Source of the DNA: Escherichia coli O157:H7
GTDB lineage: Bacteria; Pseudomonadota; Gammaproteobacteria; Enterobacterales; Enterobacteriaceae
Reading direction: 5' to 3' (one strand)
Assembly: GCF_013167455.1 (NCBI RefSeq)
Contig: NZ_CP038328.1
Length of the DNA: 64,000 bases
Part shown: piece by piece, positions 1,651-20,758 of the stretch
Layout of the letters: every line of letters starts with the position of its first letter
Numbering within the stretch: the stretch's first letter is position 1
Made by a program: the position numbers and the translations under genes
The notes under the pieces: generated by a model
Databases searched by the model: none
What the model saw: the letters and a program-made list of their open reading frames with translations, nothing else
What the model was told of the DNA's origin: nothing

Positions 1651-3561
1651 GTGACGGACGATTTTGCACCAGACGGTCAGCTGGCGAAAGCGATACCAGG
1701 CTTTAAGCCGCGAGAACCACAGCGACAGATGGCGGTAGCCGTCACCCAGGCGATAGAAAAAGGCCAGCCGCTGGTGGTGGAAGCAGGAACCGGTACGGGC
1801 AAAACCTACGCTTACCTGGCCCCTGCGCTGCGGGCGAAAAAGAAAGTCATTATCTCGACCGGCTCAAAAGCGTTGCAGGATCAGCTCTATAGCCGCGATT
1901 TGCCGACGGTCTCAAAGGCGTTGAAATACACGGGCAACGTGGCGTTGCTGAAAGGGCGCTCAAACTACCTCTGCCTCGAACGTCTCGAACAGCAGGCGCT
2001 GGCGGGGGGCGATCTTCCGGTACAAATATTAAGCGATGTGATCCTGCTGCGCTCCTGGTCTAATCAAACAGTCGATGGTGATATCAGCACCTGCGTCAGC
2101 GTGGCGGAAGATTCGCAGGCGTGGCCGCTGGTCACCAGCACCAACGACAACTGTCTTGGCAGCGACTGCCCGATGTATAAAGATTGCTTTGTGGTCAAAG
2201 CACGTAAAAAAGCGATGGACGCCGATGTGGTGGTGGTAAACCATCATCTCTTTCTGGCGGATATGGTGGTTAAAGAGAGTGGATTTGGCGAGTTGATCCC
2301 GGAAGCGGACGTCATGATCTTCGACGAAGCCCACCAGCTACCGGACATTGCCAGCCAGTATTTTGGTCAGTCACTCTCCAGTCGACAACTGCTCGACCTG
2401 GCAAAAGACATCACCATCGCCTACCGCACCGAATTAAAAGACACCCAGCAGTTACAAAAGTGCGCTGATCGTCTTGCCCAGAGTGCGCAGGATTTTCGTC
2501 TGCAACTCGGTGAACCAGGTTATCGCGGTAACCTGCGTGAGCTGTTAGCTAATCCGCAAATTCAGCGGGCATTTTTACTGCTCGATGACACCCTGGAACT
2601 TTGTTATGACGTGGCGAAACTGTCACTGGGGCGTTCCGCCTTGCTGGATGCGGCATTTGAGCGCGCCACGTTGTATCGCACACGGCTGAAGCGGCTAAAA
2701 GAGATCAATCAGCCGGGCTACAGCTACTGGTACGAATGCACTTCGCGCCATTTTACTCTGGCTCTCACGCCGCTCAGCGTGGCGGATAAATTCAAAGAGT
2801 TAATGGCGCAAAAGCCCGGTAGCTGGATCTTCACCTCAGCAACGCTGTCGGTAAACGACGATCTGCATCATTTCACCTCGCGGCTTGGGATAGAACAGGC
2901 GGAGTCGTTGCTATTGCCAAGCCCGTTTGATTACAGCCGCCAGGCGTTACTCTGTGTGCCGCGCAACCTGCCGCAAACCAATCAACCGGGTTCCGCGCGG
3001 CAACTGGCGGCTATGCTGCGCCCGATCATCGAAGCTAACAACGGTCGCTGTTTTATGCTTTGTACCTCGCACGCCATGATGCGCGATCTGGCCGAGCAGT
3101 TCCGCGCTACCATGACGCTTCCCGTATTATTGCAGGGGGAAACCAGCAAAGGGCAACTGTTGCAGCAATTTGTCAGTGCCGGTAACGCGCTTCTTGTGGC
3201 AACCAGTAGTTTCTGGGAGGGGGTGGACGTGCGTGGCGATACATTGTCATTGGTGATTATCGACAAATTGCCGTTTACCTCGCCTGATGATCCATTGTTA
3301 AAAGCGCGCATGGAAGATTGCCGTTTGCGCGGTGGCGACCCGTTCGATGAAGTACAACTGCCGGATGCGGTGATTACTCTCAAGCAGGGAGTCGGGCGAC
3401 TGATTCGCGACGCCGACGATCGCGGGGTTTTGGTAATTTGTGACAATCGGCTGGTGATGCGTCCTTACGGCGCGACGTTTCTCGCCAGTCTGCCGCCCGC
3501 GCCACGCACCCGTGACATTGCCCGTGCGGTTCGTTTCCTTGCGATACCATCCTCCAGGTAA
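1651..3561 (+). CDS. yoaA: DinG-family ATP-dependent DNA helicase YoaA
   Basis: 636-aa ORF, GTG start; Walker A GTGTGKT, DEAH motif (FDEAHQL), Fe-S cysteines; recognised as YoaA. Confidence 0.85.
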   Translation: MTDDFAPDGQLAKAIPGFKPREPQRQMAVAVTQAIEKGQPLVVEAGTGTGKTYAYLAPALRAKKKVIISTGSKALQDQLYSRDLPTVSKALKYTGNVALLKGRSNYLCLERLEQQALAGGDLPVQILSDVILLRSWSNQTVDGDISTCVSVAEDSQAWPLVTSTNDNCLGSDCPMYKDCFVVKARKKAMDADVVVVNHHLFLADMVVKESGFGELIPEADVMIFDEAHQLPDIASQYFGQSLSSRQLLDLAKDITIAYRTELKDTQQLQKCADRLAQSAQDFRLQLGEPGYRGNLRELLANPQIQRAFLLLDDTLELCYDVAKLSLGRSALLDAAFERATLYRTRLKRLKEINQPGYSYWYECTSRHFTLALTPLSVADKFKELMAQKPGSWIFTSATLSVNDDLHHFTSRLGIEQAESLLLPSPFDYSRQALLCVPRNLPQTNQPGSARQLAAMLRPIIEANNGRCFMLCTSHAMMRDLAEQFRATMTLPVLLQGETSKGQLLQQFVSAGNALLVATSSFWEGVDVRGDTLSLVIIDKLPFTSPDDPLLKARMEDCRLRGGDPFDEVQLPDAVITLKQGVGRLIRDADDRGVLVICDNRLVMRPYGATFLASLPPAPRTRDIARAVRFLAIPSSR

Positions 3562-3618
3562 TTTGTTACGGAGTATGGTATGATGCGCGCCTTTTTATTG
3601 ATCTAAGCACGAAGACCC

Positions 3619-4314
3619 ATGCGAATTCTGGCTATCGATACCGCGACAGAGGCCTGCTCTGTCGCCCTGTGGAACGACGGTACTGTCAACGCTCATTTTG
3701 AGCTTTGCCCTCGTGAACATACTCAACGAATCTTACCGATGGTGCAGGATATCCTGACCACCAGCGGAACTTCCCTGACTGATATTAACGCTCTGGCTTA
3801 CGGGCGCGGCCCCGGTAGCTTTACAGGCGTGCGCATTGGTATTGGCATCGCGCAAGGGCTGGCGCTTGGCGCGGAATTACCGATGATTGGCGTCTCCACG
3901 CTAATGACGATGGCGCAAGGGGCGTGGCGCAAAAACGGCGCAACACGCGTGCTGTCAGCCATTGACGCGCGAATGGGCGAAGTTTACTGGGCCGAATATC
4001 AGCGTGATGAAAACGGTATCTGGCACGGTGAAGAAACCGAAGCCGTACTCAAACCCGAACTCGTTCATGAACGAATGCAACAGCTTTCCGGGGAATGGGT
4101 GACGGTAGGTACAGGCTGGCAAGCCTGGCCGGATCTCGGTAAAGAGAGCGGACTGGTTTTGCGCGACGGAGAAGTTTTACTGCCCGCTGCAGAAGATATG
4201 CTGCCGATTGCTTGTCAGATGTTTGCCGAGGGTAAAACGGTGGCGGTGGAACATGCCGAACCGGTTTATTTACGTAACAACGTCGCATGGAAGAAACTTC
4301 CGGGCAAAGAATGA
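3619..4314 (+). CDS. tsaB: tRNA threonylcarbamoyladenosine biosynthesis protein TsaB (YeaZ)
   Basis: 231-aa [21 protein letters not shown]...; recognised. Confidence 0.85.
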
Positions 4315-5139: not shown

Positions 5140-6825
5140 TTGAAGAAGGTTTGGCTTAACCGTTATCCCGCGGACGTTCCGACGGAGATCAACCCTGACC
5201 GTTATCAATCTCTGGTAGATATGTTTGAGCAGTCGGTCGCGCGCTACGCCGATCAGCCTGCGTTTGTGAATATGGGGGAGGTGATGACCTTCCGCAAGCT
5301 GGAAGAACGCAGTCGCGCGTTTGCCGCTTATTTGCAACAAGGGTTGGGGCTGAAGAAAGGCGATCGCGTTGCGTTGATGATGCCTAATTTATTGCAATAT
5401 CCGGTGGCGCTGTTTGGCATTTTGCGTGCCGGGATGATCGTCGTAAACGTTAACCCGTTGTATACCCCGCGTGAGCTTGAGCATCAGCTTAACGATAGCG
5501 GCGCATCGGCGATTGTCATTGTGTCCAACTTTGCTCACACGCTGGAAAAAGTGGTCGATAAAACCGCAGTTCAGCACGTTATCCTGACCCGTATGGGCGA
5601 TCAGCTTTCCACAGCGAAAGGCACACTGGTTAACTTCGTTGTTAAATACATCAAACGTCTGGTGCCGAAATATCATCTGCCAGATGCCATTTCATTTCGT
5701 AGCGCCCTGCACAACGGCTACCGTATGCAGTATGTCAAACCTGAACTGGTGCCAGAAGATTTAGCCTTCCTGCAATACACTGGCGGCACCACAGGTGTGG
5801 CGAAAGGCGCGATGCTGACTCACCGCAATATGCTGGCGAACCTGGAACAAGTTAACGCTACGTATGGGCCTCTGCTGCATCCGGGCAAAGAGCTGGTGGT
5901 GACGGCGCTGCCGCTGTATCACATTTTTGCACTGACCATTAACTGCCTGCTGTTTATCGAACTGGGTGGGCAGAACCTGCTTATCACTAACCCGCGGGAT
6001 ATTCCGGGGCTGGTCAAAGAGCTGGCGAAATATCCGTTTACCGCTATCACCGGCGTAAACACCTTGTTCAACGCGTTGCTGAACAATAAAGAGTTTCAAC
6101 AACTGGATTTCTCCAGTCTGCACCTTTCTGCAGGCGGTGGGATGCCTGTTCAGCAAGTGGTGGCAGAACGCTGGGTGAAACTGACCGGACAGTATCTGCT
6201 GGAAGGTTATGGCCTGACCGAATGTGCGCCGCTGGTCAGCGTGAACCCCTATGATATTGATTATCATAGCGGTAGCATTGGTTTGCCGGTGCCGTCGACG
6301 GAAGCCAAACTGGTGGATGACGACGATAATGAAGTATCGCCAGGTCAGCCAGGTGAACTTTGCGTCAGAGGTCCACAGGTGATGCTGGGCTATTGGCAGC
6401 GTCCGGATGCTACCGATGAAATCATCAAAAACGGCTGGTTACACACTGGCGACATCGCGGTAATGGATGAAGAAGGATTCCTGCGCATTGTCGATCGTAA
6501 AAAAGACATGATTTTGGTTTCCGGTTTTAACGTCTATCCCAACGAGATTGAAGATGTCGTCATGCAGCATCCTGGCGTACAGGAAGTCGCGGCTGTTGGT
6601 GTACCTTCCGGCTCCAGTGGTGAAGCGGTGAAAATCTTCGTAGTGAAAAAAGATCCATCGCTTACCGAAGAGTCACTGGTGACCTTTTGCCGCCGTCAGC
6701 TCACGGGCTACAAAGTACCGAAGCTGGTGGAGTTTCGTGATGAGTTACCGAAATCTAACGTCGGAAAAATTTTGCGACGAGAATTACGTGACGAAGCGCG
6801 CGGCAAAGTGGACAATAAAGCCTGA
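5140..6825 (+). CDS. fadD: Long-chain-fatty-acid--CoA ligase FadD
   Basis: 561 codons from a TTG start ([14 protein letters not shown]...); AMP-binding motifs ([17 protein letters not shown]); ORF track extends to upstream ATG at 5074. Confidence 0.9.
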
Positions 6826-6843
6826 GCGTTAAGTCAGTCGTCA

Positions 6844-6870
6844 GACGCCGGTTAATCCGGCGTTTTTTTT
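6844..6870 (+). terminator. Intrinsic terminator after fadD
   Basis: acgccgg-ttaat-ccggcgt hairpin followed by T8 run; lies where the sRNA SroD is mapped in K-12 as I recall (not annotated here). Confidence 0.6.
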
Positions 6871-16337: not shown

Positions 16338-16546
16338 GTTATCACCAATCAAAAGGATGTGAATACGCCTCAGGAATGTGGCGCTGAATGCGCGACAAAA
16401 GGTGTTTTCTGTTTGTGTTTTTTCTCCTGATACATCGCGATATCGGCAGCATGTAGGGCACTGTCTGCATCGGTCGTTTCAGGATCGACTTCTACTATGC
16501 CAAGACTGGCACCAGGATAATACAAATCAACATCACCTAAGTGATA

Positions 16547-17524
16547 TTATCCGCGTATTTGCTGCTGAATGCGTTCTCGCAGCGACGAAATATCCGCATT
16601 CTCGTTGTTTAGTGAAACAACCAAAAACTCATCACCGCCGAGACGACCAATAACTTCGCCATTTTGCTGGAGCGTATTAAGGCGCTCGCCAACCTGAATG
16701 AGAAACAGATCGCCACTATTATGACCAAAACGATCATTGATTAATTTGAAGTTATCCAGATCGATAAACGCGATCATTATCTTTTGGTTAAGATGCCGGG
16801 CGAGGGAAAACAGCGTCGTCAGATTTTCAAAAATCGCCCGCCGATTCGGTAGCCCGGTTAACGAGTCGGTATACGATTGCGCAATCAGCGCAGCATTGGC
16901 TTCGCGCAGCTGTTCAACCAGTGCCTCTTTTTGAATATATTGTGCAATCAGTCCGGCGAATAACTGTAAAACCTGTTCCGCGCGTTCACTCCACTGGCGC
17001 TTCTCACTGCTGGCGGCGCAAAGCGTGCCATAGAATGATCCATCCGGTAAGTGAATTGGCGTGCTCAGAAATGTGGTGATGCCAAGATTGCGTGCCGCAA
17101 TACAGTCGCCCCAACGGTCAGGGACTTCATCGCTGAAAAAGCAGTTTTCATCAATGGCGCGTTTGCATAACGAGTAATCCCACGAGACGGTAAAATTCTC
17201 CGGGATGTGCATTTTCTGGCTGTTACGGGCAAACATAATATGCTGCAGGCGCGCTTCGACATCCACTTTGGTCAGGTAGGTTGATTCCATATCAGTGACC
17301 ATTTCCAGCATCTCCAGAAGCTGTCGGACCAGACTTTCCAGTGACTGTTCTTTGGCAAGGGATTGCGAGATGCGGGCGATAATCTGATCTGACACGAAAC
17401 AACTCCAGGATACGGCGGGTAAATGCTGATTATTTAATCTTTGCAGGCATGATAAAACATCATCAACAAAGATGAAACAAGACGTAATATGTTTTGAGTG
17501 AATGTAATAAAAATAGTGCTGCAA
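16547..17524 (-). CDS. dgcP: Diguanylate cyclase DgcP (YeaP), GAF-GGDEF
   Basis: 325-aa ORF from a TTG start; intact GGDEF active site (RLGGDEFLV); true start uncertain. Confidence 0.8.
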   Translation of the reverse strand: MQHYFYYIHSKHITSCFIFVDDVLSCLQRLNNQHLPAVSWSCFVSDQIIARISQSLAKEQSLESLVRQLLEMLEMVTDMESTYLTKVDVEARLQHIMFARNSQKMHIPENFTVSWDYSLCKRAIDENCFFSDEVPDRWGDCIAARNLGITTFLSTPIHLPDGSFYGTLCAASSEKRQWSERAEQVLQLFAGLIAQYIQKEALVEQLREANAALIAQSYTDSLTGLPNRRAIFENLTTLFSLARHLNQKIMIAFIDLDNFKLINDRFGHNSGDLFLIQVGERLNTLQQNGEVIGRLGGDEFLVVSLNNENADISSLRERIQQQIRG

Positions 17525-17577: not shown

Positions 17578-17832
17578 ATGAAAATTATCAGTTTTGTTCT
17601 GCCTTGCTTGCTGGTCCTGGCTGGTTGTTCAACCCCTTCTCAGCCAGAAGCACCTAAACCGCCGCAGATTGGTATGGCAAATCCGGCGTCGGTCTATTGC
17701 CAGCAGAAGGGCGGGACGCTCATTCCAGTGCAGACAGCGCAAGGGGTCAGCAACAATTGCAAATTACCGGGCGGTGAAACGATTGATGAATGGGCATTGT
17801 GGCGACTGGACCATCCGGCTGGTGAAAAATAA
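17578..17832 (+). CDS. yoaF: DUF333 lipoprotein YoaF
   Basis: 84-aa ORF with lipobox LAGC. Confidence 0.7.
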   Translation: MKIISFVLPCLLVLAGCSTPSQPEAPKPPQIGMANPASVYCQQKGGTLIPVQTAQGVSNNCKLPGGETIDEWALWRLDHPAGEK

Positions 17833-17853
17833 CCGCCGGATGCTGTACTAAAA

Positions 17854-18201
17854 TCACAAGCTACGTAGCCAGTCGGCCAGCACCAGCGCATGGTTCTGCG
17901 TGGTGTTTTTTGCTGAGTAGAGCAGGGTCAGCGGCTGTTTTTTGGCGATGTCCGCCAGCCGCTTTCCTTCTTGCTCGTGTTGTGCCAGTTCTGCAAGATA
18001 TTGCTCGCGAAAGGTTGCAAAATCGACGACTTCGCCGTGAAAGGCTTTGCGCAGTTCCGTTGACGGCGTGATTTCTTTATCCCACTCATCAAGGGCTAAA
18101 TCGGTTTTTTTGATACCGCGTGGCCAGAGGCGGTCGACCAGTACGCGATAACCATCGCTCTGTTCTGCCGGATCATAAACGCGTTTGCACTGAATATTCA
18201 T
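17854..18201 (-). CDS. yeaO: DUF488 protein YeaO
   Basis: Start at MNIQCKRVYD gives 115 aa. Confidence 0.7.
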   Translation of the reverse strand: MNIQCKRVYDPAEQSDGYRVLVDRLWPRGIKKTDLALDEWDKEITPSTELRKAFHGEVVDFATFREQYLAELAQHEQEGKRLADIAKKQPLTLLYSAKNTTQNHALVLADWLRSL

Positions 18202-19533: not shown

Positions 19534-20355
19534 ATGATGCACAGGTTGAATCTCAATGGCTATGAACCCGACCGACACCATGAAGCCGCGGTCGCATTTT
19601 GTATTCACGCCGGAACGGATGAGTTAACCAGTCCTGTACATCAGCACCGCAAAGGACAGCTGATACTGGCGCTACATGGTGCAATTACCTGTACGGTGGA
19701 AAATGCTTTGTGGATGGTGCCGCCACAATATGCGGTTTGGATACCGGGCGGGGTGGAACATAGCAATCAAGTGACAGCTAACGCTGAACTCTGTTTTCTG
19801 TTTATCGAACCCAGCGCAGTGACAATGCCGACAACATGTTACACATTGAAAATATCGCCCTTATGCCGGGAATTAATTTTAACTCTGGCAAACAGGACGA
19901 CGACTCAGCGTGCTGAGCCGATGACCCGCAGATTAATTCAGGTCCTGTTTGATGAACTCCCTCAGCAGCCACAACAACAGCTGCACCTACCCGTTTCTTC
20001 TCATCCTAAAATCCGCGCGATGGTGGAGATGATGGCGAAAGAGCCCGTCGAGTGGGGGGCATTGGGGCAATGGGCTGGCTTTTTTGCGATGAGTGAACGC
20101 AATCTTGCCCGACTGATAGTAAAAGAGACGGGGTTGAGTTTTCGCCAGTGGCGACAGCAGTTACAGCTGATTATGGCGCTTCAGGGATTAGTGAAAGGCG
20201 ATACTGTACAGAAAGTTGCTCATACGCTGGGGTATGATTCAACAACGGCCTTTATTACTATGTTTAAGAAAGGCCTGGGGCAAACGCCAGGCCGATATAT
20301 TGCGGGATTAACTACTGTTTCCCCACAATCAGCGAAACCAGACCCGTGGCAATAA
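19534..20355 (+). CDS. yeaM: AraC-family transcriptional regulator YeaM (NimR)
   Basis: 273-aa ORF with cupin N-terminus and AraC HTH C-terminus; divergent from yeaN. Confidence 0.75.
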
Positions 20356-20758
20356 GCGGGCCAACCGGTACGCCGCGAAACAGCGCTACGCCTAAAACAG
20401 TGCCCACCAGCAGCCCAGCAACCAGTTGCGGCTGGCTGCCCATTAACGTCACGCCGCGCCCACCCAGCCAGGAGACAATAACGCCTACTGCAATTGCCAC
20501 CAGCGATTTCCAGTTCAGAAACGAGTGAATCAAGGTTGAGGGCGGTAGCGTCCCGCTGGCGATGGGGGCCATAACGCCAATCGTCAGAATGATTATCCCG
20601 ATACTTAGCCCCTGTTTTTCAATCCACGGGAAAAAGGTGCTTAACGGTGTGACGCGGACAATGATCAACACCAGAATTGAAACGGCGACAGTGGTGTTAT
20701 GACTGATAAAGCCCAGCGCAGCTAACCCGAGCAGGATCAGCAAAGTGACATCAAACAT
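20312..20758 (-). CDS. yeaL: DUF441 membrane protein YeaL
   Basis: 148-aa hydrophobic ORF; 3' end overlaps yeaM by 44 bp (convergent). Confidence 0.7.

Follow-up and report, generated by a model that had tools for sequence, protein, structure and literature searches.

Tail-to-tail gene overlaps and convergent transcription in bacteria

Short overlaps between the 3′ ends of coding sequences on opposite strands have been described in prokaryotic genomes (PMC4161906; PairWise Neighbours, PMC2716372), where they originate by 3′ extension of a gene after loss of its stop codon. Huvet & Stumpf 2014 (PMC4161906) counted 75 convergent overlapping pairs in the Escherichia coli reference genome. The 2 pairs considered here, nimR/yeaL and ynjH/nudG, resemble this class in their opposite strands, shared 3′ ends, short length, and mode of origin. 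They differ from it in nothing essential, and are presumably among the 75.

A related concept, first developed in Listeria, is the convergent excludon, in which neighboring genes on opposite strands produce overlapping transcripts. Both nudG-ynjH and yeaL-nimR are named in Table 1 of Sanmartin, Iturbe, Rodriguez-Beltran & Lasa (NAR 2025; PMC12288877), whose 165 convergent excludons were each seen in 50% or more of 58 RNA-seq datasets from MG1655. The mechanism proposed for excludons is transcriptional interference together with RNase III cleavage, and as a class the pairs are less often co-expressed in single cells and show higher synteny. The same authors treat terminators embedded in the neighboring gene as a stronger sign of function; capture of double-stranded RNA with p19 could not validate the convergent excludons (PMC12288877). 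The nimR/yeaL and ynjH/nudG pairs share with these systems the opposite-strand neighborhood and the overlapping transcripts. However, the overlap in excludons is usually described for untranslated regions, whereas here it is the coding sequences that overlap, and mutually exclusive expression of the partners is hypothetical.

The third comparison is with overlapping bidirectional terminators and collision-driven termination at convergent E. coli genes (Ju et al. 2019, as cited in bioRxiv 10.1101/2022.10.23.513370). The likeness consists of a convergent junction with a stem-loop and of the fact that 3 of the 4 genes considered here have no canonical intrinsic terminator. The difference is that the one stem-loop found, described below, lies inside the nimR reading frame, upstream of its stop, with a U-run toward yeaL only, giving it the look of a one-way embedded terminator.

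Two convergent overlaps in an E. coli O157:H7 genome

The window analyzed here is a 64,000-nucleotide stretch of the E. coli O157:H7 contig NZ_CP038328.1, and all positions refer to it. The genes and overlaps are as follows.

19534..20355, + strand: nimR (formerly yeaM) CDS, 273 aa, AraC-family protein (six-frame ORF list, RefSeq)
20312..20758, − strand: yeaL CDS, 148 aa, DUF441 inner-membrane protein (ORF list, RefSeq, Pfam)
20312..20355, both strands: nimR/yeaL CDS overlap, 44 nt, holding NimR residues 260-273 plus stop and YeaL residues 135-148 plus stop
53755..54027, + strand: ynjH CDS, 90 aa, DUF1496 protein (ORF list, RefSeq, Pfam)
53993..54400, − strand: nudG CDS, 135 aa, NUDIX CTP pyrophosphohydrolase (ORF list, RefSeq, Pfam)
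53993..54027, both strands: ynjH/nudG CDS overlap, 35 nt (ORF list, RefSeq)

The 3′ overlaps of 44 nt (as yeaM/yeaL) and 35 nt that an earlier note on this DNA had reported are confirmed by the six-frame ORF list and the raw sequence. RefSeq places the CDS ends identically in the O157:H7 record NZ_AP018488.1, where both stretches compared are 100% identical to the window, and the same ends are annotated in K-12 MG1655 and in 4 of the most divergent full-length E. coli matches. Elsewhere in the window, the diguanylate cyclase gene dgcP (about 16370..17395, − strand) carries a premature stop, E283* at 16549. Compared with NZ_AP018488.1, which is otherwise nearly identical, the protein of 341 residues is shortened by its final 59. 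The coordinate offset between the window and that record is not uniform (25 of 66 genes), presumably reflecting small indels in addition to the dgcP nonsense mutation.

Domain matches show how each protein enters its overlap. The DUF441 match covers residues 7-145 of the 148 in YeaL and the DUF1496 match residues 34-89 of the 90 in YnjH, and the overlap share of both proteins lies inside the domain (Pfam). NimR, a characterized single-target AraC-family regulator of nimR/nimT and repressor of nimT (PMC5934670), matches HTH_18 at residues 180-255, HTH_AraC at residues 224-256, and AraC_binding. Its HTH domain thus ends at residue 255-256 and residues 257-273 form a non-domain tail. The NUDIX domain of NudG ends at about residue 125 of 135, and the tail LRAARPAD falls within the overlap. 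Pfam domains fix all 4 reading frames, each of which stays open as far as its annotated stop. The stop codons therefore leave no room for revision, which removes one of the ways in which the earlier note had allowed that its reading could fail. Both junctions are convergent overlapping gene pairs, with facing 3′ ends, genes that are real up to their stops, and shared coding nucleotides. They also share one antisense phase (overlap length mod 3 = 2), in which, as seen in nimR/yeaL, codon position 1 lies opposite position 1 and position 2 opposite position 3. At position 20349, within the first overlap, the O157 window reads CCGTGG where K-12 and other E. coli read CCGCGG, a single-nucleotide difference that alters both overlapping proteins (YeaL A138T and NimR R272W).

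The overlaps are no more than chance would give, and 35-44 nt is a typical length. From the 75 pairs of the reference genome, Poisson arithmetic gives an expectation of about 1.03 convergent overlaps per 64 kb and a probability of about 0.27 for 2 or more. In a baseline built on the 69 annotated CDS of this region, the median distance before an antisense frame entered from the 3′ end of a gene meets a stop is 52-75 nt, according to the frame. The probability of running for at least 35 nt is 0.65, and for at least 44 nt it is 0.61. Eleven convergent pairs lie in the window. Two of them overlap, and 3 more are nearly abutting, with gaps of 0 nt (yoaI/yeaK, about 21032/21033), 8 nt (ynjF/ynjE, about 54.5-55.1 kb), and 21 nt (yoaF/yeaO, about 17832-17854). 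These 3 are listed as excludons as well (ynjE-ynjF, yeaK-yoaI, and yeaO-yoaF; PMC12288877), and 5 of the 11 convergent pairs of the window therefore appear in the published MG1655 excludome. A co-directional overlap was also noticed in the ynjBCD ABC-transporter cluster, where ynjC and ynjB share 28 nt of coding sequence (about 58.67 kb; L002 19070..19097), more than the usual 1- or 4-nt overlaps found at ynjD/ynjC and ynjA/ydjZ.

The nimR stop codon slides along a fixed yeaL end

YeaL was used to scan species-representative genomes, which yielded 80 Enterobacteriaceae loci, 58 of them with nimR convergent on yeaL; overlap lengths in other genera were counted to the first in-frame stop. The YeaL C-terminus and stop codon are fixed in all 58 loci, and the position of the nimR stop varies. 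The overlap is 17 nt in 27 of the 58, including Klebsiella, Enterobacter, Raoultella, Kluyvera, and Leclercia, and 44 nt in 13 of the 58, mainly the Citrobacter freundii group together with E. coli. The remaining loci have overlaps of 20 nt (3 loci), 21, 45, 6 (2 loci), or 0 nt, or else gaps of 1, 4, 5 (5 loci), 122, 127, or 181 nt. The nimR end is not the same in Salmonella enterica subsp. diarizonae and arizonae: one has a 21-nt overlap with the tail …YLTGELLFSHN and in the other the stop codons stand back to back (0 nt), with the stem of the hairpin described below intact in both.

The 2 common lengths are separated by a single codon.

20324..20328: toggle site, yeaL codon 145 GTG (Val, 20326..20324, − strand) over nimR CAA (20326..20328)

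An Ile codon (ATH) at YeaL residue 145 puts TAA or TGA into the nimR frame on the opposite strand, and the overlap is 17 nt (27 of 27 loci); with Val (GTN) there, nimR reads CAA and continues to the next stop, giving 44 nt (13 of 13 loci). YeaL codon 145 fully explains the switch between 17 and 44 nt.

Variation within the 44-nt overlap shows which of the 2 frames is under constraint. Across 14 sequences, YeaL is invariant at all but 1 of its 14 residues and 9 of the 13 NimR residues differ, and the nucleotide changes affect 10 of 14 third positions of YeaL codons and 0 of 14 second positions. This third-position pattern, with YeaL constant and NimR variable, implies that the overlap evolves as yeaL coding sequence, a single constrained frame of which the NimR tail is a passive read-out.

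In 22 of the 80 loci there is no intact nimR facing yeaL. The gene is absent beside yeaL in E. albertii, E. whittamii, and 2 other Escherichia lineages, with the yeaL 3′ end unchanged. In Escherichia sp. MOD1-EC7003 it is internally deleted, leaving about 40 N-terminal codons fused beside the left arm of the hairpin, and in C. koseri it appears decayed; the yeaL 3′ end is unaltered in these 2 genomes as well. In Kosakonia, Phytobacter, Cedecea, Dryocola, and Entomohabitans, nimR is replaced by an ABC-transporter permease gene (PF00528, BPD_transp_1; about 2927-3640 in locus coordinates, − strand), which is unrelated to nimR, converges on yeaL, and overlaps the same 3′ end by 17-21 nt.

The nudG stop codon slides along ynjH

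The second pair behaves in a comparable manner. NudG orthologs diverge mainly at their extreme end, after ...LRAARPAD. When the DNA context of nudG/ynjH was aligned for E. coli and 7 other lineages, the overlap was found to be 41 nt in Salmonella, Citrobacter, E. albertii, Trabulsiella, and Superficieibacter, 35 nt in Yokenella and E. coli, and 26 nt in Phytobacter. Throughout the alignment YnjH keeps the same C-terminus (...STNPLVWRRVKP) and the same TAA stop. The difference between E. coli and its relatives lies in a short region at the end of nudG, identified from the alignment and the variation in NudG length.

53987..53995, − strand: nudG stop region, TAG-TGC-TAA

Relatives have a Ser codon, TCG, where E. 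coli nudG stops at TAG (53995..53993), and their own stop, TAA or TGA, follows 6 bases later. The same change, TCG to TAG in nudG, is ACG to ACT in ynjH, where it is silent (Thr). The NudG tail is fairly conserved, which could mean that it has a function of its own beyond the constraint imposed by ynjH.

A terminator-like hairpin for yeaL within the nimR coding sequence

Pattern scanning and folding identified a terminator-like element downstream of yeaL.

20272..20293, − strand: yeaL terminator-like hairpin, GGCCTGGCGTTTGCCCCAGGCC (GGCCTGG-N8-CCAGGCC)
20263..20271, − strand: T-rich run TTTCTTAAA (5 T) after the hairpin, the complement of nimR codons F-K-K

The hairpin begins 19 nt past the yeaL stop, has a 7-bp stem with 6 G-C pairs and an 8-nt loop, and is encoded within nimR codons 247-254 (GLGQTPGR). 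It shows the layout of an intrinsic terminator, with a GC-rich stem, a short loop, and a U-run near the stop codon, the U-run being weaker than canonical. Its predicted folding energy is −12.7 to −14.1 kcal/mol, which by itself is not significant (z = −1.53), and the terminator pattern scan found 1 site where 1.9 were expected in shuffled sequences. K-12 carries the identical hairpin sequence at 1,874,817-1,874,838.

Conservation is more informative here, since 4 of the 7 base pairs depend on synonymous codon choice in nimR. Among 19 distinct Escherichia, Citrobacter, and Salmonella sequences, synonymous sites in the stem vary by only 0-0.30 bit, including a non-preferred Pro codon (CCA), versus 1.0-1.96 bit for 3 synonymous sites in the loop, one of which is a Gly codon like 2 of the stem codons. 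The same core peptide, GLGQTPGRY, is encoded in 13 distinct sequences from other genera, but there the stem sites are as variable as the loop (1.14-1.92 bit) and only 3-6 of the 7 stem pairs form, so that the hairpin is degenerate outside the E. coli clade. The structure is thus conserved beyond coding constraint in the Escherichia/Citrobacter/Salmonella clade and not in other genera. No compensatory changes were found in the stem among the sequences compared. From the low synonymous variation of the stem against the high variation of the loop, we infer that nimR probably harbors a terminator for yeaL, which has been maintained within the E. coli clade. The yeaL mRNA would then be predicted to end at 20263..20271, with about 90 nt complementary to the nimR mRNA.

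Comparable signals were not found for the other 3 genes. Pattern and hairpin scans detected no intrinsic terminator with a U-run for nimR, ynjH, or nudG, and termination of these genes is probably Rho-dependent, collision-dependent, or leaky. A candidate hairpin on the nudG side (54004..53967) was dropped for want of conservation in Salmonella. The ynjH/nudG junction folds with z = −0.70, which indicates no special structure, and an Rfam scan of the whole window returned no match at either junction. The sole Rfam match in the window is the known sRNA sroD (RF00370, 115 bits, 6784..6869, + strand). The terminator scans also found no canonical terminator upstream of either overlap.

Transcript complementarity and expression

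A full-length mRNA must include its own stop codon, and the mRNAs of each pair are consequently complementary over the overlap. The claim of the earlier note that full-length transcripts are antisense to each other there holds logically, for at least 44 or 35 nt, and is supported by published RNA-seq (PMC12288877). We take nimR, yeaL, ynjH, and nudG all to be weakly expressed genes. Antisense interference scales with how strong the antisense promoter is, and polymerases on translated mRNA survive about 85% of head-on collisions (PMC4731013). Weak expression, frequent survival of collisions, and dependence on promoter strength together make it probable that any mutual effect is small. Negative coupling of expression, which the earlier note had raised as a consequence of the overlaps and for which the evidence is at the level of the excludon class, is thus probably weak in these 2 pairs.

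Alternative explanations for the overlaps

Overlaps of this kind could in principle be annotation artefacts, arising if a stop was mis-called, a frame was wrong, or an ORF was spurious. Nothing was found in favor of this, beyond the fact that the shares of NimR and NudG in the overlaps are non-domain tails only. All 4 proteins score well above the curated Pfam cut-offs in frames unbroken to the annotated stops, and orthologs with the same arrangement occur across genera. Moreover, nudG/ynjH serves as the overlapping-gene example in Figure 1 of the GWIPS-viz 2018 paper, where strand-specific ribosome profiling is displayed. We therefore regard an artefact as hardly credible. The hairpin at 20272-20293 might instead be read as an overlapping bidirectional terminator at which programmed collision of polymerases ends the transcripts of both genes, yeaL and nimR. 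Its stem is a perfect palindrome that folds in both transcripts, it sits at a convergent junction, and stem-loop-dependent collision termination is documented at convergent pairs (Ju et al. 2019, as cited in bioRxiv 10.1101/2022.10.23.513370). A bidirectional terminator of this kind is one stem-loop past both stop codons, however, and the hairpin is still 60 nt upstream of that of nimR, so that a nimR transcript ending there would have no stop codon. Read in the direction of nimR, the hairpin is followed by GATATATTG, with no U-run, and a simple scan detects it on the − strand only. Its position before the nimR stop and the missing U-run on that side are not compatible with a bidirectional terminator, and we consider this reading very improbable. 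In a variant, the hairpin might, besides ending yeaL transcripts, make nimR transcription pause or end too early, 60 nt ahead of the stop codon, or position collisions, such that yeaL activity would lower NimR and tune nimT efflux; this strikes us as quite doubtful.

It has also to be considered that each pair is a functional convergent excludon, kept because the partners repress each other as RNA polymerases collide and RNase III cuts the 3′ duplex, which would make their expression mutually exclusive. The presence of both pairs in the MG1655 excludome, the reduced single-cell co-expression and greater synteny of that class (PMC12288877), and the conservation of spacer-less junctions across many genera in both pairs are what such a function would lead one to expect. 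For yeaL there is also a putative terminator inside the neighboring gene (hairpin and T-run in nimR), which would guarantee overlap of the transcripts; no such signal was found for nimR, ynjH, or nudG. On the other hand, the failure of p19 capture to validate convergent excludons (PMC12288877) and the need for strong antisense promoters to obtain interference (PMC4731013) speak against it. The overlap length varies among genera and the overlap evolves as a single constrained frame. Several Escherichia, among them E. albertii and E. whittamii, and also C. koseri lack nimR or carry it in decayed form beside an unchanged yeaL end, and the unrelated permease gene of Kosakonia, Phytobacter, and Cedecea overlaps that end by 17-21 nt. 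The partners also have no known functional link: in one pair a nitroimidazole-efflux repressor faces a DUF441 membrane protein, in the other a NUDIX hydrolase faces a DUF1496 protein. On balance we judge it unlikely that the pairs are maintained as excludons.

Origin and significance of the overlaps

We consider it likely that both overlaps are incidental results of stop-codon drift in convergent junctions that lack a spacer, accompanied by an unavoidable but probably weak antisense interaction. In yeaL and ynjH, conserved domain sequence reaches to the end of the gene and the stop codon is fixed, while nimR and nudG finish their domains 10-17 codons earlier and under this explanation are read on, antisense into the neighbor, until a chance stop. 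The coding sequence of the neighbor sets where the nimR or nudG stop falls: a conservative Ile/Val change at YeaL 145 shifts the nimR stop between its 17- and 44-nt positions, and a Thr-synonymous change in ynjH created the E. coli nudG stop, giving 35 nt in place of 41. Without a spacer, transcription of each gene has to end within the other, and the mRNAs are complementary at their 3′ ends for that reason, as published RNA-seq has shown (PMC12288877). The end of the yeaL transcript would probably be set by the terminator-like hairpin and U-run in nimR codons 247-254. Repression by polymerase collision or RNase III is possible in principle, but would most likely be a small side effect and not the cause of the overlaps.

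Judged from the sequence comparisons, the CDS overlap itself appears to carry no sign of selection. The tight convergent arrangement may nevertheless bring some selective benefit, given its conservation across genera and the synteny of the class. Both overlaps were already known from standard annotation and the published excludon list, and one of them from a published figure, so that they have little importance as a discovery. What is added here is the identity of the substitutions by which the stops move: Ile/Val at YeaL 145 for nimR, and TCG to TAG, silent in ynjH, for nudG. If yeaL does act on NimR through the embedded hairpin, a regulatory coupling from yeaL to the NimR level and on to nimT efflux would be written into coding sequence. 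The putative terminator hairpin held in the synonymous sites of the nimR DNA-binding domain is itself a neat example of dual coding. The value of the finding is otherwise explanatory: in these convergent pairs one partner is constrained, and the stop of the other slides by substitutions that are silent or conservative in the first. A conserved tight junction between 2 genes does not, then, imply that their overlap has been selected.
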